DNA of 21,178 bases from Gemmatimonadota bacterium (lineage in GTDB: Bacteria > Gemmatimonadota > Gemmatimonadetes > Longimicrobiales > RSA9). Shown here piece after piece: positions 5,061 to 21,178 of the stretch; the stretch's first letter is position 1, and the number at the start of each line of letters is the position of its first letter. The notes under the pieces were generated by a model. It worked only from the letters and a program-made list of their open reading frames with translations. It was not told the DNA's origin and did no database searches. Position numbers and translations under genes: made by a program. The DNA is taken from contig JBBDRO010000058.1 of assembly GCA_040905425.1 (NCBI GenBank), forward strand, positions 7,693 to 28,870, written 5' to 3'.

Positions 5061-5066
5061 GACCGG

Positions 5067-5273: not shown

Positions 5274-5302
5274 TTGACCCGGCTACGCCAATGGCTTACA
5301 AT
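5274..5302 (+). promoter_or_regulatory. Sigma70 promoter for a leaderless brnT transcript
   Basis: TTGACC-17 bp-TACAAT, 7 nt before ATG 5310. Confidence 0.75.
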
Positions 5303-5309
5303 AACGCCT

Positions 5310-5896: not shown

Positions 5897-5910
5897 ATCC
5901 GCCCAGGGCG

Positions 5911-5962
5911 CTGGCGGTGCCATGGAACACACTCCGAATGGTACCACGGCGGCTGCGCCAGA
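5911..5962. repeat. Relic (copy 0) of the repeated ECF-sigma start region
   Basis: CTGGCGGTGCCATGGAACACACTCC matches 10382-10403, 13379-13402 and 17934-17958; the downstream GCGCCAGA is also shared. Confidence 0.7.
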
Positions 5963-6014
5963 CGAAAGCCGGAGATGAGAGGGCGCGCGGGGGCGGCGTC
6001 CACGAGGAAGCCGG

Positions 6015-7289
6015 TCACCCTGGCTCGGCGATTCGCCACCGGACCAGGTAGACGACGTCCACCTCGTCGCGCACGGTGCCGTAGACGAACGGGTGGTCGT
6101 AGGCGTACATGCGAATCCCGGGCGCGGCTGTGAAGCGGCCCACGAGACCGCCGCCGGAGTCGAACACGTCCCAGTCGGAAGCGTCCCCGCTCTCGAAGGG
6201 GTCAGGGTCCATGTCGGCCCGGTGGACGAGAAGCCGCCCCCCCTGATCGGCGATCAGGTACCCGATGATGGGCCGGAAATCCACGTGGCCGAGGCCCCGG
6301 ATGTCGTTCCGCCACATGTCGTACGCCAATTTCGACTCGCCCTGGAGCGCGCCCCGGGCCTCGAATTCCTCCACGTTACGACGGATTTCGGCCTCCATGT
6401 CCTCGTCGGTCACGGGGATCCGCTCGATCCGGCGCGTTACGCCCGGGCCACGGCTTCCGTCGGGGTGCCACTCTTCGACTTCGTAATCCCCCGAGTGGCT
6501 GATGAAGACGCTGCCGTCCGTAGAGATTGCGGTCTCGACTGGGGGCGAAAGCATGGCCATGCGCAGGAAGCCGATCTCGCCGACGAGGAATTCGTCCGGG
6601 TGGACGGCCGTGGCGAAGGGCGGGCCGAAGGAGCCGGTGGCGGGGTCGAAGACGCGGGCGTGGGTGGTCTGGTTGAAGGGGCCGCGTACCACGCCCGCAC
6701 CCCGCGGCCCGTTCCCGTAGACGGGACGGACCCGCTCCGTGACGAGCCAGCCCCTTTCGGTCCAGGCGGCCGACCCGATCGGGATCCGACGCTCGTCGGC
6801 CGGGCCCTCGTAGGCACGCGCGTCGATGAACTGGCCTTCGATGTCGAAGACGTGGTAGAGCCGCCCGTCAAAGACGATCACGGAGTCCGGACCGACCGCG
6901 ATGGCCGAGACTATCTGGAACGCCCCGGGACCCTCCCCGCGCCCGCCATACGTGTATCGGTGCGTGCCGTCGGCTGCGAAGACGCGGATCGACCGGTCCC
7001 TCGAATCGAAGACGTGGACGTCGTCACTTGGCGCGACCGCGACCGCGACCAGGCCGATCGAGGTGAACGTCTCCTCCTCCGGTCCGTCCAGCGACCCGAT
7101 CCGCAGGTCCTCCTCGAGCTCGAGGCGGGGCACGTTCGCGTCGGATACGGCAGACGCCATGGAGCCGTCGCTCACCGTCGAGTCGCCGCCCTCGGGACCG
7201 CAGGCGAGCAGGACGAAGGCGGTAGCTACGAGCGCACGAGCGGCAACGCTACGGCGGGAGGTGTCGGGATGCCGCGATGCTCTGATCAT
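6015..7289 (-). CDS. 6-bladed beta-propeller lipoprotein (A)
   Basis: Lipobox LLAC; LEEDLRIGSLDG, GGRGEGPGAF; C-terminal GTVRDEVDVVYLVRWRI typical of this family. Confidence 0.85.
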   Translation of the reverse strand: MIRASRHPDTSRRSVAARALVATAFVLLACGPEGGDSTVSDGSMASAVSDANVPRLELEEDLRIGSLDGPEEETFTSIGLVAVAVAPSDDVHVFDSRDRSIRVFAADGTHRYTYGGRGEGPGAFQIVSAIAVGPDSVIVFDGRLYHVFDIEGQFIDARAYEGPADERRIPIGSAAWTERGWLVTERVRPVYGNGPRGAGVVRGPFNQTTHARVFDPATGSFGPPFATAVHPDEFLVGEIGFLRMAMLSPPVETAISTDGSVFISHSGDYEVEEWHPDGSRGPGVTRRIERIPVTDEDMEAEIRRNVEEFEARGALQGESKLAYDMWRNDIRGLGHVDFRPIIGYLIADQGGRLLVHRADMDPDPFESGDASDWDVFDSGGGLVGRFTAAPGIRMYAYDHPFVYGTVRDEVDVVYLVRWRIAEPG

Positions 7290-8373
7290 GGTGGCGATAT
7301 GCTACGTTCAGGGATGCGGAGTGAATCTGTAGCGCTGTACAACATGCACATCGAGATCCCCGCGCTTCATGCCCAGGATGTAGTCCTCACCGATCTCAAA
7401 GATTCGCTCCAGAGCGGGCAACTCGACCCGCGCAATCGCACCCTCCGCATCGTGCACGATGGCAAACTGTGTCGAGTCCTCGGTCCCAACCGCCCAGATT
7501 CGCCCTGCCGCATCCACGTGCAGACTTTCGAACGCCGGAGTGAACTCCGGCCGGCCCCATGCGGTCAGATCGCGTTCAACCGCCTCCGGTCGGCGGGAGC
7601 GCTGAACCATGGAACCGCGTATCTCAGCCCACATCTCATCGGTGACGGGACGCCGGGAATCGAATAGCTCGAACTCCCTTTCCACGTGATCCGCGTCGTC
7701 GTAAATCCGTACTAACGGGCTGTTGGTGTTTTCGGCCACCACGATCCGCAACGGAGATCCCCCGGCAGCAACCGCGGGCCTGGCGTTGAAAGGCATGTTC
7801 TGAAAGGAACTGCTACCGGCCAGGATCTCGTCAAATGGGAAGTCGCCGAACTCCTGCTGGGTGCTATCGGCGTATCGCACGAGCACGGCATGCGGTCGAT
7901 ACCGCCCCGAGGACGGCGGTGGCGCCGATGGTCCATACCTCGGCACGACAATGGATCCGTCCGGCAACAGATCACCTTCGTGCCTGACCCTGTGCGCGTT
8001 GGAGGGACGCTCGCCGAGGAAGTCTCCCGCGGTTGACCAGAAGCTCAGTACGTCACGGACGTAATCCCAGGCCACCACACTGTCCCCGGGCACAAGCTCC
8101 AGCGCCCAAGGTGCGCGAAATTCCCCCGGTCCCTCGCCACGGCGGCCTTGAACAGTCCGCACCGATCCATCCGGATCAAAGAAGCGGATCTCGAATTCGC
8201 GCGAGTCCAGCACGGCGATCCCACCATCGGGAAGGACGAGCGCATCCTGTGCAGATCCAAAGCGCTCCGCAGGCGGGGCGTCAACACCACCGAGGCTTAG
8301 CTCCGGGGTTTCGGCAACGGTCCACACAGGCAGCTCGGGCACCGGTGAAGCATCCTGGCAGGCAAGCATCATG

Positions 8374-10349
8374 CCCATCTTCGACAGTTGCCGGGTACTC
8401 GGCCTCTGAAACCCGTTGGGACACAACAAACCGGACCTGAGCCGGTGCAGAATGTAGTGCCACAAACCGTGTAGACCGTATGGTGTATATGGATGCTACG
8501 CTTGTGGTTTTCGAGCATCGGATGTATCCTTCCGTGGTGGCAACTTAGCCTCGGGAGGCCGGATGTTCGTTCGGACCAAGCGATCGGGGCAGTACAGTTA
8601 CCTGCAGGTGGTCCATAATGAGCGGGTGGATGGCCGCGTCAGGCAGCGCGTCATCGGGACCCTCGGCCGTGTCGACGAGCTTCAAGCGAGCGCGCAGCTG
8701 GACGGTCTGCTGAACTCGCTGGGTCGGTTTGCCGATCACAGCGCTGTCCTGAGCGCTCACCGTGCGGGCGAGACCGAGGTGGAGGAGGCGCTGCGTATTG
8801 GCCCGGGCCTGGTCTTCGAGCGGCTGTGGCGAGAGTGCGGCATCCAGCGTACGCTGGAGCGGCTGCTCCAGGACCGGAAGTTCGAATTTTCCGTGGAGCG
8901 GGCCGTGTTTCTCACGGTGCTCCATCGGCTCTTCGCACCCGGCAGTGACCGTGCAGCGGAGATGTGGCGCGAGCGCTACCGGATTGAGGGCAGCGAGGAG
9001 CTCCAGCTCCAGCACCTTTACCGCGCCATGGCCTGGCTGGGGGCTGAGTTGCCGCCCCCGCAGCAGGTGGGCGCCACGCCCTTTGCTCCGCGCACCACGA
9101 AGGACGAGATCGAGGAGGGGCTCTTCCAGATTCGACGTGACCTGTTCTCCAGCCTGGATCTGGTCTTCTTCGATACCACCTCGATCTATTTCGAGGGTCG
9201 CGGCGGCGAGACCCTCGGCCAGAGGGGCCACAGCAAGGACCATCGCCCCGACCTGCCGCAGATGGTGGTCGGGGCCGTGCTGGACGCAGCGGGGCGGCCG
9301 CTGTGTAGCGAACTCTGGCCGGGCAACACCACGGATGTGCGAACGCTGGTACCGGTGGTGGATCGGCTCCGCACCCGCTTCGGCGTCCACGAGCTGTGTG
9401 TTGTGGCCGACCGCGGCATGATCAGCAAAGGCACGATCGAGGCCCTTCAGGATGGAACGCGCAACGTGCGCTACATCCTGGGTGCGCGCATGCGTCGCGT
9501 GAAGGAGGTCCGCGATGAGGTGCTGGCGCGAGGGGGCCGCTACCGGGAGGTGCGCCCTCCACGGCAGTCCAGCAAGGGACCCGCCCCGCTCCAGGTGAAG
9601 GAGGTCTGGGTCGAGGATCGCCGCTACATCGTGTGCTTGAACGAGGAAGAGGCACGCAAGGACCGACTCGACCGGGAGGCCATCGTAGCCTCCCTGGAAA
9701 AGAAGCTCAGCCAGGGAGAGAAGGCCCTGGTAGGCAACAAGGGCTACCGCCGCTTCCTCACGTCCACCGGCAACAGCTTTCGGATTGATCGGGCGAAGCT
9801 GGAACAGGAGGCCCGCTATGATGGCAAGTTCGTGCTCCAGACCGACCTCGATCTGGACGCCGCCGACGTGGCGCTCCGCTACAAGGAACTGTGGCAGGTC
9901 GAGGCCGCCTTCCGTAGCGTCAAGTCCGTCCTCGACACGCGCCCCATTTATCACCAGAAGGACGAGACCATCCGCGGCCATGTCTTCTGCAGCTTCCTCG
10001 CGCTGGTGCTGCTCAAGGAACTGCTGCATCGCATGGAAGAGAAGGGCGGGCACGTGGAATGGGCCAGACTACGCGAGGACCTGGATGCGCTGGAAGAGAT
10101 GAAGGTGCGTACCACGGGTCGATCCTTCATCCTGCGTACGCCGACCCGCGGCGACGCGGGACGTGCCCTGCAGGCGGCCGGCGTGGCGCTCGGACCCTCC
10201 GTCCGCTTGCTGAGCAGCGATCCATGAGGGCGTAAGGAGCAAGGACAGAGGCGTGGAGCGGGCCCGGGCAGCGTAGTGCCAAGGCCCCGAAGCAGTCCCG
10301 TAAACTATTTAAAGGGCGGAGCTTACGTTTTTCAACTGTCGAAGATGGG
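8374..10349 (+). mobile_element. IS1634-family insertion sequence, 1976 bp
   Basis: Perfect 17-bp IRs CCCATCTTCGACAGTTG (8374-8390) and CAACTGTCGAAGATGGG (10333-10349); 5-bp target duplication TCATG (8369-8373, 10350-10354). Confidence 0.95.
8563..10227 (+). CDS. IS1634 family DDE transposase
   Basis: 554 aa; FFDTTSIYF, GHSKDHRPDLPQ, VADRGM, YKELWQVEAAFRSVKS, RPIYH, IRGHVFCSFLAL; GGAGG RBS. Confidence 0.95.
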   Translation: MFVRTKRSGQYSYLQVVHNERVDGRVRQRVIGTLGRVDELQASAQLDGLLNSLGRFADHSAVLSAHRAGETEVEEALRIGPGLVFERLWRECGIQRTLERLLQDRKFEFSVERAVFLTVLHRLFAPGSDRAAEMWRERYRIEGSEELQLQHLYRAMAWLGAELPPPQQVGATPFAPRTTKDEIEEGLFQIRRDLFSSLDLVFFDTTSIYFEGRGGETLGQRGHSKDHRPDLPQMVVGAVLDAAGRPLCSELWPGNTTDVRTLVPVVDRLRTRFGVHELCVVADRGMISKGTIEALQDGTRNVRYILGARMRRVKEVRDEVLARGGRYREVRPPRQSSKGPAPLQVKEVWVEDRRYIVCLNEEEARKDRLDREAIVASLEKKLSQGEKALVGNKGYRRFLTSTGNSFRIDRAKLEQEARYDGKFVLQTDLDLDAADVALRYKELWQVEAAFRSVKSVLDTRPIYHQKDETIRGHVFCSFLALVLLKELLHRMEEKGGHVEWARLREDLDALEEMKVRTTGRSFILRTPTRGDAGRALQAAGVALGPSVRLLSSDP

Positions 10350-10381
10350 TCATGGGCACCAGGAGCAGAGCTGATCGGGAC

Positions 10382-10596
10382 GGCTGTGCCATGGACACAC
10401 TCCTGGCGGGGGCTCCGCCCTGGGGAAGCCAGCGCCAGATGAACACGGGGAACCCACAACGCTAGCGGGTTGGGAGGGGGCAACAGGCTACGGCACGGAG
10501 GGACCCCCCATTTCTACCCTCCGGCTTTTCGGAGGGTAAGATCTTTCTGTTGCTGCCCTCCCCCCTGGCGCATTCGCACCGCCGCCTTCGGCATCT
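10382..10596. repeat. Copy 1 of the repeated module (sigma/MFS intergenic region only)
   Basis: Aligns with about 13381-13605 and 17936-18158 (shared CCGCCCTGGGGAAG, GCGCCAGATG, GGCTACGGCAC, CCCTGGCGCAT); more diverged than the other two copies. Confidence 0.85.
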
Positions 10597-10676
10597 GTCC
10601 CATTGTGGGAGTACACGCCCGTGTAAACTTTGGACTCCACGACCACCCTGCGACCAACAGGACAGTCTATTATTGG

Positions 10677-11711
10677 CTATCGGCGCAGGTCGGCAATCAC
10701 CACCGAGGGTACCGGCTCTTCTGTGCTGAGAAGAAAGCCGTGGTCGCTACTATAATCGTGCATATAATACCAACCGTATATTCGCCCGATGACGTTCTTC
10801 TGGTTTGCATCGATCGAATATACGATGGTAGTCCGTCGGTCAATTGGCTCCCCTGGGCTACCATGCCATTCCGCCCAGTACGTGACTAATGCGGACCTAG
10901 CCAAGCCGGCGGGAAATGGTCCGGTTCCTACCTTCACCGAAAGTAGAGTTTCATTAGCCCGGCCGGGCACCGGTCCGCCATTGGAAGCCGCTGATGAGGC
11001 CTCCGGCGTAACAGAATCCTGTACCGTGGTTATACGCCCCGATTTACAGTCCAACAGCTTCACAGCCGGTAGAAGGTCATGTTCCGCGAACCAGACGATT
11101 GAGCTTCCGTTTGAGGCCGAGAACCCCGGGTGTCGCCATGGTATATACGTACCGGCCAGTTCGGAATCGACCCTGATTGGCGAGGCCTGAGAGGTAGATT
11201 GAACAACAACAGCGACTGCTGAATCCCCAAGACGCCCGTACGCGAAAATCTCGTTGCCTTGACAGGCCGACTCAAGCACCCTTACACTCATCTGAATCGG
11301 GATCGAACTGGATCGGAGACGCGTGCCCTCCCGGCTGAATACCGTTAGCCTGTTGCGATCGTGCGCGACGATCACTTCACTGTCATCCGTGACAGCAATG
11401 GCCCGTGTTGAGTATGCTTCGCCAGGCCCCCCGCCGAACGGAATGAACCGAGCCTCCAATAAACCAGTCGGTCCGAAAATCCAGGCAAACGGGTCCGAAG
11501 CATCCAGCACAGCTATTCCGCCGTTTGGCAAGAACTTGGCCTCTCGAACTCGGGTGAACGTCACCGAAGTTTGACCAACTGCTGGAATAGTCCGAGACCC
11601 CTCCCGGAGGTCGATGATCGCATCTTTCTCCGGGAGGGTGTCATCCACTTCTCCGCACGCTAGCAGGAGCCCTGCTACCGCCAAAGAATGACGTATCGGC
11701 CGACGTACCAT
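10677..11711 (-). CDS. Beta-propeller-type lipoprotein (C)
   Basis: MVRRPIRHSLAVAGLLLAC lipobox; LPNGGIAVLD, GGGPGEA; TGATG coupling to the upstream peptide gene. Confidence 0.8.
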   Translation of the reverse strand: MVRRPIRHSLAVAGLLLACGEVDDTLPEKDAIIDLREGSRTIPAVGQTSVTFTRVREAKFLPNGGIAVLDASDPFAWIFGPTGLLEARFIPFGGGPGEAYSTRAIAVTDDSEVIVAHDRNRLTVFSREGTRLRSSSIPIQMSVRVLESACQGNEIFAYGRLGDSAVAVVVQSTSQASPIRVDSELAGTYIPWRHPGFSASNGSSIVWFAEHDLLPAVKLLDCKSGRITTVQDSVTPEASSAASNGGPVPGRANETLLSVKVGTGPFPAGLARSALVTYWAEWHGSPGEPIDRRTTIVYSIDANQKNVIGRIYGWYYMHDYSSDHGFLLSTEEPVPSVVIADLRR

Positions 11712-11938
11712 CAATCCGGCGGGCAACCAAGAGTGCTGGAGTGGCAAGCATACGTGCACTCGACCTCCTGCTCATCACACTCCACGAGGAAGCAGATGGT
11801 ATCCTCCTCGGTGGGGTGCTCAATGCACGAATCGCAGATATCGTAGCAACCCTCGTCCGCAGCGAGCATGCTGGCGCTGCCCGCGACGAAGAGGAAGGCC
11901 ACGATTCCAGATCCCAGGTACTTCCGCAACAGTCTCAT
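11711..11938 (-). CDS. Small secreted acidic Cys-rich peptide (75 aa, 8 Cys)
   Basis: Strong AAGGAGG RBS; signal peptide MRLLRKYLGSGIVAFLFVAGSASMLAA; mature DEGCYDICDSCIEHPTEEDTICFLVECDEQEVECTYACHSSTLGCPPD. Confidence 0.85.
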   Translation of the reverse strand: MRLLRKYLGSGIVAFLFVAGSASMLAADEGCYDICDSCIEHPTEEDTICFLVECDEQEVECTYACHSSTLGCPPD

Positions 11939-11979
11939 TTGATGCCTCCTTCTAAGGCGTGGATTTGTGAGGCGCCCGG

Positions 11980-12528
11980 TCAATTCAACCATCCGCCAAT
12001 CGGCAGGGCGCGCAACCGATTAACGGCCATGATTCGGGAGAGCCTGAATGAGAGATTCACTCTTGCCGTGGAGTCATGCCGCACAGTCAGATAAACCACA
12101 GATGGTACGTATTGAGCCCGAAGAGAACGCTGGATCACTCCATCTACATCTCTTGCAATCAGGAGGTCGCTAGCAGAGGAAGAGGCAAAGTCTGGGGGGA
12201 GAATTGCGGATGTTGGAGCGCCCTTCACCACCAACAAAACCGAGTGGCCACCGGATCGCGCCAACTGCAATGCAAAGGCGCGGTATCGATCACCATGTTG
12301 TACGCAGCTATTGCACGATGTAGACAGTAGAACAACAGTCAAGTCCACGCTGTCCTCCATAGTAGCGCTTAGCGGCGACATTACTGCCGGAACCCTTCCC
12401 AACTCGCTATCCGGTTCGGGCAGATAGGGGTGACTGCCCTGCTGGAACAATCTGCCTGCCACAAGTACCGCCCCCAATACGAGCAGGCCCAAGCCGGCAA
12501 TGCGGCGGGTTCCAATGGTTGCATTCAA
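11980..12528 (-). CDS. Membrane-anchored thioredoxin-fold (TlpA-like) CxxC protein
   Basis: N-terminal TM segment, VVLLSTSCNSC, DVDGVIQRSLRAQYVPSVVYL with cis-Pro-type motif; probable TTG start at 12528 (GGAG upstream), alternative 12591. Confidence 0.7.
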   Translation of the reverse strand: MNATIGTRRIAGLGLLVLGAVLVAGRLFQQGSHPYLPEPDSELGRVPAVMSPLSATMEDSVDLTVVLLSTSCNSCVQHGDRYRAFALQLARSGGHSVLLVVKGAPTSAILPPDFASSSASDLLIARDVDGVIQRSLRAQYVPSVVYLTVRHDSTARVNLSFRLSRIMAVNRLRALPIGGWLN

Positions 12529-12824
12529 CCGTAGTGGCTCCCTATGCACCGCTGACTCGGTCGCGAAAGATTTTGTTGACGGGAAGGCCACGGCAGTACG
12601 TCACACCGACTCTGGCGGCGTCCAAAGGCATGCTTTGGTCGGCGACACCTTCCCCTGAGGGTGAAGGCATCAATTGGCCTTGGCTGGCACCGCCCTTGGA
12701 CAAGCCCCTACCGCGAGCACCGGCTTCCGAACAGGATGGGGACATGCCGCTCCCTGTTGATGACCGGTCGCAACCCGCGTCCGATCTCGTCCTCGTTCCT
12801 ACCCCTATTAACCCACCAACCCCC

Positions 12825-13391
12825 TTACCCCCCCCCGTCCAAAAAAGAGGACACATCGTCAAACCCGCCGATTCCCCTTGCCAGCAGGGCATTCTTGATG
12901 TTCCCATATGCCGCCGTCTTCCGCTTCTCTAACGCCTTGGGAGTGGCGTTCAGCTCCGCCGCAGCTTCCGCCACGGTGAGCTCCTCGTAGGTCGTGAGCC
13001 TCACGGCGGACCGCTGCCTTGTGGGCAGATCGTCCACGATCTCAGCCAGGAGCCGTTGGAGCGCGGCGGCTCCGATCGCCACGGCGAGCTCGCGCGGCCT
13101 CGGTGTGCCTGCCTCCGGCGCATGGGCCAGCGGCGCCTGCTTCAGCAGTCTATCCAGCATCCTCCACGCCTCCCGACGCACGGCCCGGAACAGGTACCGG
13201 CGGCGTCTTTGCACAGGTACCCGTGCCAGATAATCCTTTGGCAACTTACTGAAGACCTCGTGCACCGCGTCCTAGGCGCGCGCAACGTCATGTAGAATCC
13301 GGGTGGCGATTCGGATCATCTCCGACGCGTGCGCTACGTAAAGCTCCGCGACTTCACGCCTGTCGACCGGGTTGAATGCTGGCTGTGCCAC
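12825..13391 (-). pseudogene. ECF-type sigma-70 factor with in-frame TAG at codon 40
   Basis: AGGAG-7 nt-GTG; ELYVAHASEMIRIATRILHDVARA*DAVHEVF (region 2) and DDLPTRQRSAVRLTTYEELTVAEAAAEL (region 4). TAG at 13272-13274 where the other copy has CAG. Confidence 0.85.
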
Positions 13392-13641
13392 GGACACACT
13401 CCTGCCGGGGGCCCCGCCCTGGGGAAGGCGGCGCCAGATGGACACGGGGAGTCTACAACGCCGGCGGGTGGCAGGTGGGAACCGCGGACGAGGGCGGAGG
13501 CTACGGCACCGTCGCACCCCCATGTTTATGCCCCGGCCGCTCGAAAGGCAAGAGCTTTCTCCTGATACCTCCGCCCCCTGGCGCATCCGCCCCATCCCCC
13601 CATCTTCCCCGCCAGCAAACGCACCGCAGCCCGGAGCCGCA

Positions 13642-13905
13642 TTGCCCCTCACCGCGCGCGACCGCGCCCTCATCCTCACGGCCATCATGCTGGCGCTCTT
13701 CCTGGGCGCGCTGGACCAGACCATCGTGTCCACGGCGCTGCCCGCCATCGTGGCCGACCTGGAGGGGCTGGACCGCTACGCGTGGGTGGCCACCGCCTAC
13801 CTGCTGGCTTCCACCTCGCTGGTGCCCATCTACGGCAAGCTGGCCGACATGCGCAGCCGGCGGAGCATCGAGCTGGTGGCGATGGGCCTCTTCCTCACGG
13901 GCTCC
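13642..13905 (+). pseudogene. 5' fragment of DHA2 MFS transporter
   Basis: Near-identical to the first 88 codons of 18198-19748, then runs into unrelated lower-GC sequence (stop at 13983). Confidence 0.9.
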
Positions 13906-13950
13906 GCGTTTTCATACCGTACCAGGAGCAGCGACCAACTGAGCACTGTC

Positions 13951-15033
13951 TCACCGAGACTCGGACTCCACGATCCGATGTAACCGCAAGGACAGGGAAC
14001 CGTCGTTACGTTGGCTCATCGAATATAAAAGGGAATCCGAGGCGAATCCTCTTATCGGCTCTCTCGACCTGCCGCTTATGATTACTCGTTGAGAGTGCGG
14101 ATCAACGAGTGCTATCACCGAGTCCAAATACTGATGCTCTAGCACTACCATGTCAGTGTTTGTTCTGTCGACGTTCCGATCAGCTGGCGTCCAAGCGGAG
14201 GAGGCGACGAGGCCCACGACCCAGATCAGCCCATCAGAGCGGCAACGTATGGTAGTGATCAAACCTTTTGGCCGCTCCTTCCAAAATTCGACTGATGACC
14301 CGGGCACGTGGCCCTCTAACCAGGGGACATCCAATTCCACGGTGATGGTATCACGCGGATCATGGCGCCACCTAGATAGTGCCAGTTCGCCCACTGGGGA
14401 ACTCCACAAGGTTCCATCGTGACATGCTGTCAACACTCGCCGGGGAGGTCGTCTGACATCTATCACAGAACCTGCAAAATCATACGAGGCCTGTCGAGAG
14501 CCATCCCAGCTAAAACGATGTACCATATAGCCAAAAAGGCGACGCTCCCCTATTAAACTCACGAACGCAAACTGACTATCCGGCAAAAGCCGGAACGATC
14601 TCGCAGTATTATGAACGGCTGAACCCGTGTAGCGATGATTAAAGTTCTCGTCAAATACTACATGGTGCTGCGAAAAAACATGAATGTTTCCTTGATTGTC
14701 AACTTCAAGGCCCCGAACCCGACGGAATTCGTCGGGGGCATCTCCAGAACGGCCAATAGATCTCTGGTATGCGCCGTTCGTACCGAATATAAATACCCTT
14801 CCATCAGGATAGACCGGCGCAACGGCGAAGCGGCCGTCTCGTAGTTGCCGTACCGCTGAAGAATAGTGCAAATCCCCATCGGCATTCGAGACATCCAAGT
14901 CCATCACCGGATTAATTGCCAATGTGTCTGCAATGAAAGCAGACACCGGCACATTAGCCACTTGGCCACCACTCAGGAATTTCACCGCGCAGAGAAGAGA
15001 AAGTGCAGTTGCGAACAGAGGATATCTCGGCAT
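13951..15033 (-). CDS. Secreted beta-propeller-type protein (D)
   Basis: Signal-like MPRYPLFATALSLLC; VFIFGTNGAYQRSIGRSGDAPDEF; SDGLIWV; visibly lower GC. Confidence 0.8.
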   Translation of the reverse strand: MPRYPLFATALSLLCAVKFLSGGQVANVPVSAFIADTLAINPVMDLDVSNADGDLHYSSAVRQLRDGRFAVAPVYPDGRVFIFGTNGAYQRSIGRSGDAPDEFRRVRGLEVDNQGNIHVFSQHHVVFDENFNHRYTGSAVHNTARSFRLLPDSQFAFVSLIGERRLFGYMVHRFSWDGSRQASYDFAGSVIDVRRPPRRVLTACHDGTLWSSPVGELALSRWRHDPRDTITVELDVPWLEGHVPGSSVEFWKERPKGLITTIRCRSDGLIWVVGLVASSAWTPADRNVDRTNTDMVVLEHQYLDSVIALVDPHSQRVIISGRSREPIRGFASDSLLYSMSQRNDGSLSLRLHRIVESESR

Positions 15034-15202
15034 CACAACGGGAGCCCCCTTTGGGTTGATCACTCGCGAATTCTAATGCGGACTGACTCCACTGCCGAAT
15101 ACGAACAGATTCGGGTCCTGGAGGACAAGCTTCCCTGGCAATCAGGTGGTACCGTTCAAGCTCCGCAAATGGCGGGGAACGAAAGCGGACTGCTCCGGAA
15201 CT

Positions 15203-16624
15203 TCACCGCCTGGCGCTGCCCACACTTCGCACGAGCATGACGCGCAGCCCGGCGGTATACCACACCGCCCGCGTATCCTCGAACTCATGGCCCCACCATG
15301 CTTTCAGATCGCCCCAGGAGGTGCGCTCTAGGACCGCTCCCACCTCCAGTTCGGTCGCCGGGCTGCCGAGTCCTACGAGCACGCCCGCCGCCGCTCCGAT
15401 CGGTAGGCCCCACGATGTGATGTGGTTCGGCGTCGACCGACGCGCCACGCCCGCCCGGGCCGCTGCGAACGGCCGCACGGCCTCACCGCCCCACACCAGC
15501 CGCGGCTCCAGGTAAAAGCCCGTGGCGCTCCCCGTTTCCTCCCTGGTCCCCTGGCCGAAGTACGTACCCGCCGCGCCCACGCCGAGCCAGACCCTCGGGC
15601 GCCAGCGCCAGTGCACCTGCGTGGCCCAGCCGAGTCCCGGTGAGGAGAGGCCGTCCACCTGGCCGCCCACGGCCCCGGCGCCGAACGCGAGGGAAAGGTC
15701 CCACAGGGAGCCGCCCCGTGCGTCATGCAGCGCCACGTCGTCCATAGTGTGGCGAAACCACAACGCCACCACGCCGCAGTGGGACCCGGATCCGCCGTAC
15801 GCCGCGGGCAACTCCGCCACGCCACGATAGACCTCGACGGCTTCGATGTCATGGGCCGTGAGCGTCCGCAGCCACATCAGCATGTCCTCTTCGGCCTCGT
15901 CGCCTACCCGCGCCCCACCGATGTAGAGGGTGGCTCGGCAGCTGCCGTCTGCACTGAACAGGCGGGCGGTGTGGCTCCGCAGCATCTCGATGACCGGTAT
16001 GGTGGCCGTCTCTCGGACGCGCACGCCAGGTACGATACCAAGCACTCCGCCCAACCGCATGCTGCCGAGCGGCGCCAGATCCTCGCGGGTGAGGAATTTA
16101 CCCCACGGCAGCGCCATGCGGTCACGGATATCCTGCATGTAGGGAGGCTCGAGCCGCTCCGCCCGGACATCGAGTGGCGCCAGCGCCACGGGTTCGCCGC
16201 GGAGCGCCAGCTCCACCTGCACCACGGCATCTGGGTCGAGCTCGCGTGCCTGCGTCTCCAGCGTGCCAAACGCAATGTGCTCCACCCGCAGCCGGTAGCG
16301 ACCTGCCGTCGGGACCCGCACCGAGAAGACCCCGTTGCCCCCGCTCACGGCACTGGCCACTACAGAATCCGCGCCGGCGGGCAGGACGGAAACCACGGCG
16401 GCCGCGACGGACCGACGGCTGTCGGCGTCCACGACCTGCCCGGTGAAGACCTGGGCAGCCGCCGGGGTGACAGTCATACCGAGGGCGGTCGCCAACGCGA
16501 CCGCCCTCGTGAAGATATAAATGAGGCCTCCATTCCTGCGATTCGGTATGGGGAGCACATGATCCCCGCATGAGAAATGCAAGCGAATCCTATCTGCTTC
16601 TTTCTCCGTCATTATGACGGGCAA
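15203..16624 (-). CDS. Exported protein: carboxypeptidase-regulatory-like domain, TonB-plug-like domain and C-terminal beta-barrel-like region; start uncertain
   Basis: AAAQVFTGQVVDAD...GRYRLRVEHIAF; IEAVEVYRGVAELPAAYGGSGSHCGVVALW; alternating strands GFYLEPRLVWG, WYTAGLRV. Confidence 0.75.
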   Translation of the reverse strand: MPVIMTEKEADRIRLHFSCGDHVLPIPNRRNGGLIYIFTRAVALATALGMTVTPAAAQVFTGQVVDADSRRSVAAAVVSVLPAGADSVVASAVSGGNGVFSVRVPTAGRYRLRVEHIAFGTLETQARELDPDAVVQVELALRGEPVALAPLDVRAERLEPPYMQDIRDRMALPWGKFLTREDLAPLGSMRLGGVLGIVPGVRVRETATIPVIEMLRSHTARLFSADGSCRATLYIGGARVGDEAEEDMLMWLRTLTAHDIEAVEVYRGVAELPAAYGGSGSHCGVVALWFRHTMDDVALHDARGGSLWDLSLAFGAGAVGGQVDGLSSPGLGWATQVHWRWRPRVWLGVGAAGTYFGQGTREETGSATGFYLEPRLVWGGEAVRPFAAARAGVARRSTPNHITSWGLPIGAAAGVLVGLGSPATELEVGAVLERTSWGDLKAWWGHEFEDTRAVWYTAGLRVMLVRSVGSARR

Positions 16625-16625
16625 A

Positions 16626-17282
16626 TCAGAAGGGTTTGAAGTTAGCGGGGCTCCACCAGAACCCTAACGGTGGCAACATCGGGAGCCGTTGCCGGTCAGA
16701 CGCGATTCGGTCCATTTCAGCACCTACCCCACGTCCGACATGATCTGGAAGAACAACTTGGGCGACGACGAGTTCATTGCACCCGATTAGCTGGATAAGT
16801 GAACGTTCTCGATCGAACTCCACTCTGCTTTCCTGAACGAGGCGCAGGATGGCGTGAATCTCGCCGGCGGCAGATGCCTCCTGGATGTCCTCCAGATCCT
16901 CCATAAAGTTGGGACCCTCACAATCCATATGCCACTCCCAGCAATAACCAGGCGCAGAGGAGTTCCCTTCAGCATGCGATTCGGGATCGTCTGCTAACGG
17001 CTCCCCCTCCGCAGGCTGTATGTAATATGCGAATCCTCCATTGAAGAATTCATGGCAAATGGAGTAATTACAACCGCCTACATCTATCGTAGTACAAAGT
17101 TCGCATTCACCCTGTGCCCACAAGCGAGGGGTAGCGGTTAAGAGATTCATCAACAGAACCAGCCCCATCACACGGAGCGCGAGAGCCAGGCGAACGTTCC
17201 AGACCGGCATCGGTGCCGCGCCTTTGATCGAGATTGACGTGAGCCAGAATGCAACGAGCGCGGTAACGAACAAGTAGCCCAT
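16626..17282 (-). CDS. Secreted protein with Cys/His-rich acidic N-terminal domain
   Basis: GGAGG RBS; hydrophobic leader ending LWA-Q; CELC...C...CH...H...GYCWEWHMDC, then helical region and RSLIQLIGC. Confidence 0.75.
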   Translation of the reverse strand: MGYLFVTALVAFWLTSISIKGAAPMPVWNVRLALALRVMGLVLLMNLLTATPRLWAQGECELCTTIDVGGCNYSICHEFFNGGFAYYIQPAEGEPLADDPESHAEGNSSAPGYCWEWHMDCEGPNFMEDLEDIQEASAAGEIHAILRLVQESRVEFDRERSLIQLIGCNELVVAQVVLPDHVGRGVGAEMDRIASDRQRLPMLPPLGFWWSPANFKPF

Positions 17283-17362
17283 TTCGTCCCTCCGATTTGC
17301 GGTCTGCAGCTAAGGGCTAGTGGCTTCCTCGACGTGACGAAACATCTAGTCTCCTACCTCTA

Positions 17363-17946
17363 TTAACCCGCGAACCTCCTTACCCCCCCCCCGTCCAAAA
17401 AAGAGGACACATCGTCAAAGCCGCTGATTCCCCGCGCCAGCAGGGCATTCTTGATGTTCCGATACGCCGCCGTCTTCCGCTTTTCTAACGCCTTAGGAGT
17501 GGCATTCAGCTCCGCCGCAGCTTCCGCCACCGTGAGTTCCTTGTAGGTCGTGAGCCTCACGGCGGACCGCTGCCTTCTGGGCAGATCGTCCACGATCTCA
17601 GCCAGGAGCCGTTGGAGCGCGGCGGCTCCGATCGCCACGGCGAACTCGCGCGGCCTCGGAGTTCCTGCCTCCGGCGCATGGGCCAGCGGCGCCTGCTTCA
17701 GCAGTCTATCGAGCATCCTCCACGCGTCCCGACGCACGGCCCGGAACAGGTACCGGCGGCGTTTTTGCACAGGTGCCCGTGCCAGAAAATCCTCTGGCAA
17801 CTTGCTGAACACCTCGTGCACCGCGTCCTGCGCGCGCGCAACGTCATGTAGAATCCGGGTGGCGATTCGGATCATCTCCGGCGCGTGCGCTACGTAAGCT
17901 GCGCGACTTCACGCCTGTCGGCCGGGTTGAATGCTGGCTGGGCGAT
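17363..17946 (-). pseudogene. ECF-type sigma-70 factor with ATC at the start position and a -1 frameshift near the 5' end (170-aa ORF from ATG 17875 remains open)
   Basis: AGGAG...ATC GCC CAG CCA versus GTG GCA CAG CCA in copy 2; plus-strand CGTAAGCT at about 17893-17900 versus CGTAAAGCT in copy 2. Confidence 0.75.
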
Positions 17947-18078
17947 GGAACGCACTCCTGCCGGGGGCCCCGCCCTGGGGAAGGCGGCGCCAGATGGACA
18001 CGGGGAGTCTACAACGCCAGCGGATGGCAGGGGGAAAGCCGCGGACGAGGGCGGAGGCTACGGCACCGTCGCACCCCC

Positions 18079-18108
18079 ATGTATACCCCCCGGCGCCTCA
18101 CCGGGCAA
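18079..18108 (-). promoter_or_regulatory. Putative promoter of the sigma gene (equivalents at 13522-13551 and 10510-10539)
   Basis: TTGCCC-17-TATACAT, TTGCCT-17-TAAACAT and TTACCC-17-TAGAAAT; spacing is conserved while spacers diverge. Confidence 0.55.
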
Positions 18109-18197
18109 GAACTTTCTACGACCACCGGCCCTGGCGCATCCGTCCCGCCCCCCCATCTTCACCCGGCCAGAGACCCGTACCGAAGCCCGGAGCCGCA

Positions 18198-19748
18198 TTG
18201 CCCCTCACCGCCCGCGACCGCGCCCTCATCCTCACGGCCATCATGCTGGCGCTCTTCCTGGGCGCGCTGGACCAGACCATCGTGTCCACGGCGCTGCCCG
18301 CCATCGTGGCCGACCTGGAGGGGCTGGACCGCTACGCGTGGGTGGCCACCGCCTACCTGCTGGCCTCCACCTCACTGGTGCCCATCTACGGCAAGCTGGC
18401 CGACATGCACAGCCGGCGGAGCATCGAGCTGGTGGCGGTGGGCCTCTTCCTGACGGGCTCCTTCCTGTGCGGCATCGCCGGCGAGTTCGGAGCGTTGCCG
18501 CTCATCGGCGACGGCATGAACCAGCTGATCCTCTTCCGCGCCATCCAGGGGCTGGGTGGCGCGGGCATCTTCGGCATGGCCTTCATCATCATCGCCGACC
18601 TCTTTCCCCCCTCCGAGCGGGGCAAGTGGCAGGGGCTGATCGGCGCCACCTTCGGCGTGGCCAGCGTGCTGGGCCCGCTCGTGGGCGGCTTCCTCACCGA
18701 TCATGGCGGCGGTCTGATCCCCGGAATCGAGGGCTGGCGCTGGGTCTTCTACGTGAACGTGCCGTTCGGCGCGCTGGCCGTCTGGTTCATCGTGCGCCAC
18801 ATGCCGCCGCTCGTGCCGCCGGGGGAGAAGGCGCGCATCAACCGCGTCTCGGCTGCGCTGCTCGTGCTCGGCCTGGCCACGCTCATCACCGGCCTGCAGC
18901 TGGACAAGCTGCGCTACCCGTGGCTGCCGGGCCTCGGACCAGCGCCGCTGGAAGCCTGGTGGACCGGCTGGGTGACGCTGGGCCTGCTGGCCGTGGCGGC
19001 CGCCGCGCTCACCCTCTTCACGCGCCGCACGCTGCGCGAGCCAAACCCCATCCTGCGGCTCTCCCTCTTCCGCAACCGTGTCTTCTCCACCGCCAACGCC
19101 GCGCAGTTCTTCTTCGGTGCCGTCTTCCTCTCCCTCATCCTCTTCCTGCCGCTCTTCATGGTGAGCGTGGTGGGCGTCTCCGCCACGCGCGCGGGCGTGA
19201 GCCTGATCCCGCTCTCACTCGGGGTGGTGGCGGGCTCCACGCTGGCCGGCCAGCTCGTCTCCCGCATCGGCCACTACCGCCGCATCATGCTGGCGGGCAC
19301 GGCGCTGCTCTTCGTGGGCGTGCTCCTGCTGGCGCGCATGGACGCGGACGTGGCCTACGGCACGGTCACCTTCTACATGGTGCTCTGCGGCCTGGGCATG
19401 GGACCGGCCATGCCGCTCTACGTGTTGGCCATCCAGAACGCCGTGGACGTGCGCTACGTGGGCCAGGCCACCAGCGCCAACCAGTTCTTCCGCCAGATCG
19501 GCGGCATGGTGGGCGCTGCGGTGATGGGCACCATACTGGCCGTGGGGCTCACGGTGGCCGCGGGGGAGGGGCTGACGGTGGGCGCGCCGGGCTCCGCGCC
19601 GCCCCGCGCCTTCGCCGACGCGCTGACACGCATCTTCACGGCGTCGGCCGCACTCGTGGCAGTGGCCGGGCTCATCACCGCCTTCATCCCCGAGCTGCCG
19701 CTGCGCCGCACGCATGACGTGGCGCGCCCGGGGGTGACCGGGGATTAA
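18198..19748 (+). CDS. DHA2 (EmrB/QacA-like) MFS efflux transporter
   Basis: MLALFLGALDQTIVSTALP, WVATAYLL, PIYGKLADMHSRR, FRAIQGLG, GPLVGGFLTD, WRWVFYVNVP; TTG start with GGAG RBS. Confidence 0.93.
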   Translation: MPLTARDRALILTAIMLALFLGALDQTIVSTALPAIVADLEGLDRYAWVATAYLLASTSLVPIYGKLADMHSRRSIELVAVGLFLTGSFLCGIAGEFGALPLIGDGMNQLILFRAIQGLGGAGIFGMAFIIIADLFPPSERGKWQGLIGATFGVASVLGPLVGGFLTDHGGGLIPGIEGWRWVFYVNVPFGALAVWFIVRHMPPLVPPGEKARINRVSAALLVLGLATLITGLQLDKLRYPWLPGLGPAPLEAWWTGWVTLGLLAVAAAALTLFTRRTLREPNPILRLSLFRNRVFSTANAAQFFFGAVFLSLILFLPLFMVSVVGVSATRAGVSLIPLSLGVVAGSTLAGQLVSRIGHYRRIMLAGTALLFVGVLLLARMDADVAYGTVTFYMVLCGLGMGPAMPLYVLAIQNAVDVRYVGQATSANQFFRQIGGMVGAAVMGTILAVGLTVAAGEGLTVGAPGSAPPRAFADALTRIFTASAALVAVAGLITAFIPELPLRRTHDVARPGVTGD

Positions 19749-19761
19749 GCGACGACGCCCC

Positions 19762-21012
19762 TCATCCTTCCTCCGCGCCGGACCCTCCATGATCCATCTT
19801 CGAGATCCGGTACACTCGCACCGTATGGACTCCGAATTCGTCCCTGATTATGCCCCAGACGAGATCACCGCGGAGCCCGCGGCGCATGAATTCCTCCGGC
19901 AGCACGAACCGTCCCTGGTACGCACCGTCCGCCGAGAACAGGTCGTAACCCCACGGTTCCGTCCAGCCGTCATCGGTGCGCACCGACGGCATATGGACGC
20001 CTACGACCATACTGCCATCGTGCCCGAACCACATGCCCCCCGGCCTCAGGATCGGCTTCTCACGAGGCAGCGTCGGACTGCGCTCCAGACCCAACATTTT
20101 CGCGAACTCCTCCATAGTCTGGGCGTGGACCTCCGGTTGCATCAGGACCGGCTCGGCCGGCCGCTCGATGACAAGCGTGTCAGGCCAAGGCTTCCCGGCG
20201 GCCTCGATCGGAACGATCCCGATCCGGTACTCGCCCGTACAGGCCCTGGCGAAGCGGCCTGCGGACCAAACTGTTGCCTCAAAGGGTCCGAATGGAAATC
20301 CGACTGAATTCTCGCACGCTTCTCGCCGGACCCATGCAACGTCGTCCTCTGTGGGGCGGCTCGGCACCGGGATCCGAATCGAATCGAGGGTTGCGCCCTC
20401 TTTGATCCGGAGGAGCCAGATCGCGCGCAACTGCCCGGGCCGTCGTCGATTCGAGTCCTTGAGGTAGACGACTCCCGAGCTATCGGCCAGAATGGCCCCC
20501 GGGGCACTTCCCGTAACCCAAGTACGGCGTGAATCCAGAGTCCAGATATCGTCCAATCGACCGTCGTTCCGGTACAATGTCAGCCGATCCGCCAACTCGC
20601 CATCACGCACGATCACGCGGCCGTCAGGCAGTTCCGCCATGCCCGACGGGATACGATACTCCCCTGGCCCTGCCCCTTCCCTACCCACGCGACGGACGAA
20701 TTCACCGGAAGGCGAATAGATCCGCACCATCGGCTCGGCACCCTGTACTACCCTGGCGCGTCCTCCATCGGAGACCCAGACCTCGCCGCCACGGGTGACG
20801 AGCACGTCATTGATTGCCGCGAACTCGTAGTCACGGCCGGAGCGTGTCTCCCCGATTTCGGCAACCAAGTGCACCGGAAGGCGCAAGGAATCGGGCACTC
20901 CAACGTCGACTCGATCGGCCGGCTCTGAACCACAGCCAAGCGCGAAGAGAGCGGACAGTGCCAGTACCATTTCCGGCGCATGCAGGCTATTACAGGTCAG
21001 TAGCCGAGACAT
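19762..21012 (-). CDS. 6-bladed beta-propeller lipoprotein (E)
   Basis: Lipobox ALGC; VGREGAGPGEY; WGIIRDEFGVHTVRVYRI; ATG at 21012. Confidence 0.85.
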   Translation of the reverse strand: MSRLLTCNSLHAPEMVLALSALFALGCGSEPADRVDVGVPDSLRLPVHLVAEIGETRSGRDYEFAAINDVLVTRGGEVWVSDGGRARVVQGAEPMVRIYSPSGEFVRRVGREGAGPGEYRIPSGMAELPDGRVIVRDGELADRLTLYRNDGRLDDIWTLDSRRTWVTGSAPGAILADSSGVVYLKDSNRRRPGQLRAIWLLRIKEGATLDSIRIPVPSRPTEDDVAWVRREACENSVGFPFGPFEATVWSAGRFARACTGEYRIGIVPIEAAGKPWPDTLVIERPAEPVLMQPEVHAQTMEEFAKMLGLERSPTLPREKPILRPGGMWFGHDGSMVVGVHMPSVRTDDGWTEPWGYDLFSADGAYQGRFVLPEEFMRRGLRGDLVWGIIRDEFGVHTVRVYRISKMDHGGSGAEEG

Positions 21013-21044
21013 GCATGTAGCGGTGGAGCGCTTCCGAATAGGCC

Positions 21045-21178
21045 TCAGGTAGCTCCCCCATCGCAAGGGGTGTCCACCTCGGGATCGCAGCAGGTGCACA
21101 GTTCCCAGACCGGTCCGCCTGCATGTCCCAAGCATTCTTGCGCATCAGCCTCGCAGAAGTGGTGTTGCTGCACGCACT
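21045..21178 (-). CDS. C-terminal part of a small acidic Cys-rich protein (partial; not in the ORF track)
   Basis: Frame from 21176 reads CVQQHHFCEADAQECLGHAGGPVWELCTCCDPEVDTPCDGGAT* (7 Cys in 43 aa, no K/R), ending 32 nt before propeller E. Confidence 0.7.
   Translation of the reverse strand, partial: CVQQHHFCEADAQECLGHAGGPVWELCTCCDPEVDTPCDGGAT

Follow-up and report, generated by a model that had tools for sequence, protein, structure and literature searches.

This report concerns a stretch of 21,178 nt from a Gemmatimonadota bacterium (Longimicrobiales), called the window throughout, in which one regulatory segment built around a sigma-factor gene of the extracytoplasmic function (ECF) type recurs ahead of different operons for exported proteins, among them a series of six-bladed beta-propeller lipoproteins. 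The segment, which we call the platform, and the operons, which we call cassettes or cargo, form a real tandem array. The evidence base is one metagenome-assembled genome (MAG) of 4.12 Mb in 115 pieces, 96.7% complete, with a guanine-plus-cytosine (GC) content of 70.6%, in which the window is G000:C58:7693-28870. C58 is a scaffold with runs of N at 4246-4255, 7683-7692 and 28871-28970; such runs flank the window on both sides, so the window is one gap-free contig between two scaffold gaps. The names C58, C53, C32, C9, C100, C74 and C47 denote pieces of this same genome, and positions without a prefix are those of the window.

The original prediction, drawn from the letters of the window, was of four copies of an ECF sigma-MFS (major facilitator superfamily) module. 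Four copies of the platform are indeed present, with motif starts at 5913, 10382, 13381 and 17936 (self-blastn and 23-mer/22-mer searches), but only as repeats of the platform: there are just two sigma genes in the window, both damaged, and the two leftmost copies have none. All genes of the array lie on the minus strand except the MFS gene and that of an insertion sequence (IS), a feature absent from the earlier account. The features are as follows, with propeller assignments by a paralog hidden Markov model (HMM) where an E value is given.

1-1395, minus strand: TonB-dependent receptor fragment
4207-4638, minus strand: HepT toxin, left of the array (NCBIfam NF047751, 49.7; Pfam HepT-like match)
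4635-5060, minus strand: MntA nucleotidyltransferase antitoxin, left of the array (NCBIfam NF047752, 74.1; Pfam Polbeta match)
5274-5600, plus strand: BrnT toxin (Pfam BrnT_toxin, 85.7 bits)
5597-5896, plus strand: helix-turn-helix (HTH) antitoxin (Pfam HTH_3/MqsA_antitoxin), stop codon 13 bp from the leftmost relic
5909-5935: relic A, platform remnant of 23-26 bp (sigma ribosome-binding site and start-codon region)
6015-7289, minus strand: propA, six-bladed propeller lipoprotein (paralog HMM E 4e-59; lipobox-like LLACG in the translation)
7308-8465, minus strand: propB, six-bladed NHL-type propeller lipoprotein
8563-10227, plus strand: IS1634-family transposase gene (NF033559, 400.7 bits, cut-off 100)
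10382-10586: relic 0 (sigma start codon and 4 codons, leader and sigma-70-like promoter; no sigma body, no MFS codons)
10677-11759, minus strand: propC, divergent propeller lipoprotein (paralog HMM E 3e-26; no Pfam match at E<=1)
11980-12591, minus strand: p203, membrane-anchored thioredoxin-like protein with a CNSC motif
12797-13905: platform copy 1 (GTTAnTAGGGTAGG element at 12798-12812, tract of nine C at 12828-12836)
12825-13391, minus strand: sigma1 pseudogene of copy 1 (GTG start, TAG at codon 40)
13392-13565: promoter and leader of copy 1
13642-13905, plus strand: MFS stump of copy 1, 88 codons
13951-15063, minus strand: propD, propeller (Pfam DUF5128)
15203-16624, minus strand: Cpd473 (CarboxypepD_reg PF13620, 38.3, above cut-off; weak Plug-like region, 17.9, below cut-off)
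16626-17282, minus strand: p218, secreted Cys/His-motif protein
17352-19748: platform copy 2 (element at 17353-17367, tract of ten C at 17383-17392), with the only full MFS gene
17363-17875, minus strand: sigma2 of copy 2, damaged
18198-19748, plus strand: full DHA2-type MFS gene of copy 2 (PF07690, 169.6 bits, cut-off 33.4)
19762-21135, minus strand: propE, propeller lipoprotein

The platform and its copies

Read along the sigma strand, the platform runs from a sigma-70-like promoter (TTGCCx-N17-TAnACA) through a leader of ~150 nt and the ECF sigma gene to a G-tract followed by GTTAnTAGGGTAGG, a segment of 0.85-1.1 kb. An AGGAG ribosome-binding site and an ATG within the near-palindrome TGTGCCATGGACACA open a sigma factor of 188 amino acids (aa), and the G-tract, 7-12 G long, encodes its C-terminal Gly run in the tail DDVSSFLDGGG that is conserved in the subfamily (tracts at 12828-12836 and 17383-17392 in the window, and at C53:172-181, C58:30679-30687, C32:155103-155110 and C100:163231-163242). 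A regular expression for GTTAnTAGGGTAGG finds six matches in the genome, every one at a sigma-to-cargo junction (two on C58 and one each on C53, C32, C9 and C100), against one match for the reversed control. Diverged relatives of the platform are found on C32 and C9. The sigma loci of C32, C9 and C100 have no MFS gene, and the divergently transcribed MFS is thus a mere passenger of the platform; its product scores 218.1 against TIGR00711, just under the cut-off of 230.2.

The length of the G-tract, 9 or 10, sets the end of the sigma protein as GGG or GGGVRRFAG. The tract of copy 2, seen in contigs anchored in unique cargo, has 10 C in one sequencing run (X1, see below) and 9 C in another (X2), a difference that could be slipped-strand variation or homopolymer error. 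Runs of G or C of at least 9 bases number ~56 in the genome.

Conservation of the leader at the DNA level extends to paralogs on C9 and C32, where the sigma proteins are 35-44% identical (leaders at 13392-13565, 17947-18122 and 10393-10560, C32:154380-154552 and C9:3470-3660). The leader has no match in Rfam at the gathering threshold or at E<=1. An RNA element or riboswitch was considered and dropped, the RNAalifold covariation term being unfavourable (+3.39, 7 sequences) and the folding no better than that of shuffled sequence (z = +0.97); the conservation may reflect protein-binding DNA instead.

By self-blastn, 12797-13905 and 17352-18461 are 92.7% identical over 1115 bp, and 10382-10586 aligns with each of the long copies over 215-222 bp at 71-74% identity (E 1e-32 and 5e-25). 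Near 5911 blastn gives no match. A 23-mer around the sigma start codon, with 3 mismatches allowed, has just two matches across the 4.12-Mb genome, one in copy 2 and one at 5913-5935 (1 mismatch), against 0 for the reversed control, and its 22-mer form matches only copies 1, 3 and 4 and the relic at 10382; given this uniqueness the fourth copy is a real relic of 23-26 bp. Smith-Waterman alignment of 5909-5935 scores 32-35, where the shuffle maximum was 30.

Inside the window the copies shrink leftward just as had been described, from the full MFS through exactly 88 MFS codons and ~205 bp of promoter and leader to 23-26 bp. The stop codon of propE lies 13 bp from the end of the full MFS gene, and the propD open reading frame (ORF) ends at 13951, the stump at 13905. 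Alignment shows that the long copies have a common left edge directly after the GTTAnTAGGGTAGG element, where homology ends, and right edges that all differ. At all loci examined, GC content steps down right past this post-sigma element.

Further copies had been predicted past 21178, and two were found: C58:30656-31504, beyond the 100-N gap (copy 3), and C53:142-1012 (copy 4). Platform copies are 85-93% identical to one another. Copies 3 and 4 have a common right flank, different from that of the others, which continues into the 5' end of a lipoprotein gene; C53 alone has that gene in full. Copies 1 and 2 are 91-98% identical in sigma, 66-82% from the promoter to the MFS start and 98-100% in the MFS stump, and in a comparison of copies 1, 2 and 4 the informative sites fall in clusters (50 runs versus 61.8 expected over 94 sites; runs test, p = 0.007). 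This pattern supports the view that the platform copies are mosaics of each other and the module a recombination substrate.

The sigma genes themselves are graded. Sigma3 (C58:30676-31242) and sigma4 (C53) are intact at 188 aa; sigma4 scores 49.2 bits against TIGR02937 (cut-off 42.9, model positions 3-165 of 165) and 31.7 against Sigma70_r4_2 (cut-off 25.7), with Sigma70_r2 at 20.7, below its cut-off of 24. These profile matches place the intact protein among ECF (group 4) sigma-70 factors, with regions 2 and 4 only and a score above the superfamily cut-off. The window copies, being truncated, score 30.5 and 40.8 bits, under the TIGR02937 cut-off. Sigma2 has ATC in place of its start codon (17944-17946) and has lost 1 bp, leaving an internal ATG with 24 residues missing. 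The TAG at codon 40 of sigma1 is covered by a 100%-identical X2 unitig (13177-13305). Of sigma0 the start codon and 4 codons remain at 10382, beside the IS1634 gene, and relic A is without a sigma gene. From right to left, then, there are two intact genes outside the window, an N-terminal frameshift, a nonsense codon and two deletions; sigma integrity falls leftward in positional order, provided that C53 lies right of C58. The polarity of the original prediction therefore stands for MFS length in the window and gains a sign that it had not used, sigma decay, but its MFS part is non-monotonic beyond the window.

The transposase gene sits where sigma0 would be expected and is single-copy in the genome (one tblastn match). 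Terminal inverted repeats were looked for around it and not found, and the ends of the IS1634 element are for that reason undefined.

No close relative of the sigma factor or of the locus emerged from the collections searched. A search of 41 genomes at E<=1e-20 gave a match in 1 of 41, the window's own genome; a scan of species-representative genomes gave 4 loci at 23-40% identity and a metagenome scan 10 loci at 28-43%; and a word search of 5.8 billion proteins returned just the three copies of this genome.

Propellers and their partners

Every cassette ends in a propeller gene, as had been noted from the letters, and all of these belong to a six-bladed propeller family by the HMM and the propB model. 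The family is large, ~114 ORFs in the 4.1-Mb genome matching the paralog HMM, often in tandem rows and near contig ends. Such rows lie at C32:63544-73838, C37:39361-44886 and C106:45072-48639. All five window propellers match the HMM (E 2e-20 to 2e-71), while against Pfam PF17170 (DUF5128, cut-off 22.9) only propD scores above the threshold (26.1), propA (16.9) and propE (17.9) falling below it and propB and propC having no match. The AlphaFold2 model of propB, the only propeller modelled (predicted local distance difference test, pLDDT, 86.6; predicted template-modelling score, pTM, 0.83), is of the six-bladed NHL type with a helical insert. By Foldseek its best PDB matches include the NHL domains of TRIM2 and Brat (7qrv, 4zlr, 1q7f; E 5e-11 to 2e-10) and two structural-genomics proteins from Bacteroides, 4raa among them, whose function is unknown; the model predicts six four-stranded blades.

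Among the 302 homologues of propB, almost all from Gemmatimonadota and one from a Gammaproteobacteria MAG, the few that are named are 'hypothetical protein' or '6-bladed beta-propeller'. A word search with propD gave no match; an exhaustive search of 1.84 billion representatives gave 1788, the best non-self match being 30% identical and the ten best unnamed or 'hypothetical protein'.

The array propellers are mutually no more than ~30% identical, except propE and propF (91%), the latter lying beyond the window. A tree was built from 44 of 107 sequences, chosen as the six array members, their FastTree neighbours, sigma-linked paralogs and a spread of others. PropC and propD fall in a 14-member clade rich in sigma-linked paralogs (Shimodaira-Hasegawa-like approximate likelihood-ratio test, SH-aLRT, 96), propE/propF are sister to a sigma-linked C74 paralog (support 100), and propA and propB stand elsewhere. 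Constraining A-F to one clade costs 176 log-likelihood units and is rejected by the approximately unbiased (AU) test (p = 6.4e-6). On this tree the array propellers are not local duplicates, E/F excepted. The cassettes had been called dissimilar, which is too strong, for they have a common theme, one whose gene pair is seen in other Gemmatimonadota.

PropE (in the region 19653-21178) and propF (C58:28971-30175) are tandem copies with the 100-N gap between them. In an X2 contig the sequence upstream of the propE start continues for 81 nt and then enters sequence that matches 19653-19776 in diverged form, ~100 bp from the end of the MFS gene, so the E/F duplication took a piece of the MFS 3' end along.

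Most of the cargo genes are low in GC and by composition foreign to this genome. Among the 114 paralogs propD has the lowest value, 52.7%; propC has 56.7% and p203 55.7%, and p218, p203, propC and p129 (a cassette F gene) span 54.8-57.2%, beside 70.9% for the MFS gene and 68.8% for Cpd473. GC at third codon positions (GC3) is 0.95 for MFS, 0.87 for propA, 0.81 for Cpd473, 0.75-0.77 for sigma, 0.70 for propB and propE, 0.59 for propC and p218, 0.57 for p203 and 0.53 for propD. Only 35 of 3958 1-kb windows of the genome have a GC content <60%; C58 accounts for four, and about half are located at, or next to, propeller loci linked to a sigma gene (C9, C32, C47, C58, C74, C100). Likewise, 7 of the genome's 12 lowest-GC propellers lie behind sigma genes. 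More generally, of 33 sigma-like ORFs 13 are followed by a propeller on the same strand no more than 4 kb downstream, a count in which the C58 rows include pieces of the same genes.

Judged by their partner genes, the cassettes are not unrelated in function. P218 is homologous to small secreted proteins beside sigma-linked propellers on C32, C9 and C100 (BLASTP E 4e-5, 4e-4), and an alignment of the four family members has invariant C60, C63, H77, C114, H118, C121 and C168, with the motif C-x2-C...H...C-x3-H-x2-C and a C-terminal domain common to all four. The C9 member reads CLDCH, a haem-c-type motif. Structure models of p218 (pLDDT 0.43 for the Atlas model, 53.9 for a new one) are too poor for a structure search, with just residues ~125-198 at moderate confidence. 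An HMM of the family finds 7 ORFs in the genome, none of them more than 1.6 kb away from a propeller and six at 273 nt or less. The family occurs in 12 of 200 other Gemmatimonadota genomes (E<=1e-5), and of 11 loci fetched from other Gemmatimonadota (L027-L037), 10 have a propeller ORF directly next to the p218-like gene. Five of these neighbourhoods, extended to 14 kb, have no sigma gene directly upstream, and the sigma linkage accordingly seems particular to this lineage. Pairs of a propeller, mostly with an N-terminal CxxC, and a p218-like gene lie at:

C32:155212-156963
C9:1079-2744
C100:161162-163149
C105:58435-60133
C59:7030-8624

The N-terminal CxxC is near-invariant in homologues of the propC/propD clade and missing from propD.

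Thiol-disulfide chemistry recurs in the other cargo. P203 has no Pfam or NCBIfam match, and its language-model features lie at 0.93-0.96 to the Thioredoxin_2, Redoxin and TlpA clusters. DsbA-like proteins occur at the C47 propeller locus, which is sigma-linked, and next to a propC/propD-clade propeller of low GC on C100 that has no adjacent sigma gene. Cassette contents differ, with a thioredoxin-like gene in C, p218 and Cpd473 in D and p129 in F, and as annotated they repeat one theme, a p218-family Cys/His-motif or thioredoxin-like protein with an NHL propeller lipoprotein. The cargo is likely to be an extracytoplasmic module in which a propeller lipoprotein works with a Cys/His-motif partner, helped by thiol-disulfide oxidoreductases. 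A likeness between such a propeller with its small Cys-rich protein and the heavy and light subunits of methylamine dehydrogenase (MADH) or QHNDH was considered and dropped, as it found no support in any search. Cpd473, which has no sequence match in PDB, starts 1 nt from the p218 stop codon and has native-like GC between the low-GC p218 and propD; this intermediate placing makes cassette D itself a mosaic.

Assembly and origin of the array

The assembly was compared with Logan contigs and unitigs from four runs of one sediment study (X1 to X4), which hold 0.92, 0.91, 0.65 and 0.19 of the sampled 31-letter words of the stretch; the sample of origin may be among them, so the runs are not fully independent data. 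X3 and X4 are too shallow to judge cassette presence, and the comparison leans on X1 and X2. Contigs of X1 cover 5126-12827, 13823-17407 and 18379-19776 with 0 differences, and X2 has near-identical pieces, the left stretch in two (5126-8402 and 8373-12852). The junctions of relic 0 with propC, the stump with propD, p218 with the platform and MFS with propE all lie inside these contigs, which means that truncated platforms beside different cargo exist on single molecules. Copy 1 is mostly tiled by unitigs at 100% identity (listed at 99%), 13306-13432 being in no listed piece; gaps in Logan cover do not count as evidence.

Contigs of X1 and X3 match the window from 5119 rightwards only, with a common different sequence to the left (the long X1 contig starts at 5126), and this may be a variant left junction between the two toxin-antitoxin pairs. 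Poly-G/poly-C runs of 27-43 bases at contig ends (C27:215-251, C4:6780-6810, C2:31344-31370), with another at C58:4203-4245 beside a scaffold gap, look like sequencing or assembly artefacts rather than biology.

The reading we favour, to which we give about an even chance of being right, is that the array was built by repeated recombination anchored on the platform, with new units added at the right and older sigma copies decaying. A newly arriving unit, made up of cargo, platform and part of a right flank, would pair homologously with a resident platform or its right-hand flank, and its other end would join illegitimately; this could come about through homology-facilitated illegitimate recombination of linear DNA, or when a circle integrates by a single crossover. 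The resident platform would thereby be cut at an arbitrary point in its right flank, leaving a stump of MFS (or, on C53, of the next gene) followed by the new cargo and an intact platform with its flank, and the newest cargo would come to lie beside the intact flank gene. Stump lengths would then arise without erosion, and polarity would come from the position of insertion. The earlier idea that older units erode is thus not needed for the stumps, since each insertion could have set the length of its stump. We predict expression of the cargo operons from either the platform promoter or the post-sigma element, with intact sigma copies acting in trans; if so, or if the sigma-70-like promoter still drives the operon, older sigma copies would be dispensable and decay. 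The original prediction had likewise invoked acquisition by recombination through the module, a proposal that the mosaic copies (p = 0.007) and the low GC of most cargo favour but for which an outside donor was not found.

A number of observations weigh against this reading, several of them concerning the assembly. The Logan contigs break inside the 1.1-kb repeats, so that cassette order rests on the original assembly; a copy-1-specific unitig (13496-13686) stands at about half depth, 21.6 versus ~47 in one run and 9.0 versus ~20 in the other; and a contig joint from 12860 to 13454 (X1 depth 41.5, X2 15.3, shorter side 22 nt) skips nearly all of sigma1 and may reflect either a platform variant lacking sigma or an artefact of the repeat. 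The link from the end of C58 to the start of C53 is not established. Copy 3 ends before the MFS start, with no MFS codons, and copy 4 holds only about the first 20, so the leftward-shrinking rule is true inside the window only. The edges of two relics lie within 3 bp of each other at the sigma start, which random deletion would not predict, and this near-coincidence suggests that the start-codon palindrome may be a breakpoint hot spot. No recombinase is nearby: the genome's three PF00589 tyrosine recombinases (C21, C80, C94) are all elsewhere than C58 and C53, in keeping with the earlier statement that the window has no integrase. Low GC is also found at single sigma-propeller loci (C9, C32, C100, C47), and as it marks the cargo class at every sigma-linked locus it cannot date individual acquisitions; Cpd473 and propA, by their GC3, look native. 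In the searches made, the sigma subfamily was found in a single genome only, and none of the cargo genes tested had a donor or close relative. An outside origin is thus not established, and reshuffling within the genome is equally possible.

If instead the platform were the mobile part, a pre-existing row of propellers would have been invaded repeatedly by promoter-sigma copies, each dragging along a different length of right flank, and no cargo would have been acquired here. The fixed left edge and varying right edges of all long copies are what such invasions would leave, as is the drop in GC right past the post-sigma element at every locus examined; sigma-less tandem propeller rows are common (5 on C32 and 4 on C37, with others on C106, C74 and C81), and the platform copies are 85-93% identical where the propellers are mutually at most 30%. 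Yet the segment has no transposase or recombinase of its own, no terminal repeats or target duplications were seen around it, and the positional order of sigma decay is left unexplained. The same sigma-then-cargo boundary is moreover present at old, diverged single loci on C32, C9 and C100 (sigma identity 35-44%), so that the association of sigma with cargo predates the array. We consider invasion by the platform unlikely. Tandem duplication of one sigma-cargo-MFS unit, followed by fast cargo divergence with gene conversion homogenising the sigma region, would account for the mosaic copies and the common functional theme of the cassettes, and the recent E/F duplicate with its ~100 bp of MFS 3' end is an instance of it. 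It is made improbable by the rejection of a single clade for A-F, propC and propD being separated from A, B and E/F by the branch of support 96, and by the differing gene content of the cassettes and the spread of propeller GC3 from 0.53 to 0.87.

An artefact, in which alleles of one sigma locus from co-existing strains had been strung together through the repeat, would be a natural suspicion in a 115-piece metagenome bin whose C58 is a scaffold with N runs, the more so as independent contigs break inside the repeat, one copy-specific unitig is at half depth, and the C53 start and C58 end resemble two forms of a single junction. If the cassettes were strain alleles, each should have only part of the depth of the flank, and the near-equal depths weigh against this: the unique pieces of X1 stand at 47.8, 44.3 and 49.4, matching the left flank (bin 5000-5539, depth 47), and those of X2 range over 14.3-22.8 (19.4 and 22.8 for the two left pieces, then 17.4 and 14.3). 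The stump-to-propD and relic 0-to-propC junctions lie within single contigs at 0 differences, and copies that differ by 7-14%, with a longest identical run of 152 bp between copies 1 and 2, are resolvable by paired short reads. Stringing together of strain alleles is in our judgment highly improbable.

A bolder form of the preferred reading, recombination anchored on the platform, would make the platform a counterpart of an integron that is borne by a regulator and needs no integrase: cargo of low GC would be swapped at the exact point after the G-tract and GTTAnTAGGGTAGG by one-sided homologous accretion, with the start-codon palindrome as hot spot and a variable G-tract switching cargo expression on and off, and exported redox/propeller modules would thereby be diversified. 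Taken whole, this is speculative and rather doubtful.

Relation to known systems

In its layout the array is closest to the orphan modules of CDI (contact-dependent inhibition) and Rhs loci and, more loosely, to integron arrays, and the defining parts of both are missing. Displaced older units of orphan modules keep a fragment of the conserved segment, and homologous recombination is the proposed driver. Orphan toxin-immunity modules lie downstream of CDI (cdiA) and Rhs genes (for this kind of system, see PMC4927057 and PMC6336857). The array resembles them in layout only: a conserved segment is followed by variable cargo in a polar order, and displaced units keep fragments (the 88-codon stump and the 205-bp and 23-26-bp relics). 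In CDI/Rhs loci the conserved part is a toxin coding body, whereas here it is a whole regulatory unit of promoter, leader, sigma gene and post-sigma element, and, seen from the 3' end of their own cargo, the relics are beyond the conserved unit. CDI/Rhs cargo carries toxin and immunity domains; Pfam and NCBIfam gave neither for the 13 proteins of cargo and module, PADLOC and toxin-specific libraries not having been searched. The likeness to polymorphic-toxin orphan modules that had been proposed thus survives for the layout with its relic fragments but not for the cargo.

Integron arrays, like this one, are one-directional rows of cassettes behind an expression platform, and large chromosomal integrons carry toxin-antitoxin pairs, which here stand at the array edge. 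Integrons have an IntI-type integrase, and there is none on C58 or C53. They also have attC repeats, whereas the window has no inverted repeats of at least 40 bp and the four propeller 3' flanks have no common motif by eye, no attC covariance model having been run. Finally, an integron has one common promoter, and here each cassette has its own copy of the platform.

Homology-facilitated illegitimate recombination joins one homologous end and one illegitimate end (PMC3240628). It would yield junctions of the type seen in the array: a truncated resident segment, foreign DNA and an intact homologous segment. It is a mechanism and not a type of locus, the literature searched has no multi-unit array built in this way, and for this organism it is a proposal. 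The genome has a ComEC homologue; such homologues occur in most bacteria.

As in FecI-type systems and Bacteroidetes polysaccharide utilization loci (PULs), the ECF sigma gene stands ahead of genes for exported or outer-membrane proteins, including a CarboxypepD_reg/Plug-like one. Those systems have an anti-sigma partner; here no anti-sigma family was recognised beside any copy in Pfam or NCBIfam, including among the proteins downstream of sigma1, sigma2 and sigma3, and p203 has merely ~28 cytoplasmic residues ahead of its membrane helix. A cognate anti-sigma gene next to an ECF sigma gene is usual, not universal. The sigma gene differs from those systems also in its sigma-70-like promoter, where an auto-regulated one is not obvious, and in its DDVSSFLDGGG tail. 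A paper reclassifying ECF factors (PMC7826278) has in its main text no mention of Gemmatimonadetes, NHL, propeller or lipoprotein.

The propellers themselves resemble DUF5128/NHL lipoproteins of Bacteroides (BF0058, PDB 4raa; BVU_1028, PDB 3s9j) in fold, in the GxGxGPGEF motif and in exported lipoprotein character. The similarity is marginal, propD alone passing the Pfam threshold, and the family differs from them in its size here (~114 ORFs) and in having one clade paired with a Cys/His-motif protein. Literature on DUF5128, NVEALA and BF3164 yielded nothing usable, and a search for '6-bladed beta-propeller' with 'Gemmatimonadetes' gave one unrelated preprint. A repeated sigma-gene platform with swapped cargo has no description in the literature searched, a narrow search.

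The large and unstudied family of propeller lipoproteins is now tied to partners that can be tested, namely the Cys/His-motif protein, thiol-disulfide oxidoreductases and a private subfamily of ECF sigma factors that has a conserved DNA element of its own. If the preferred reading is true, the homology anchor by which cassettes are collected and displaced can be an entire regulatory unit, in place of a recombinase site or the body of a toxin gene, and uncultured high-GC bacteria would have an added route by which to diversify their exported proteins.

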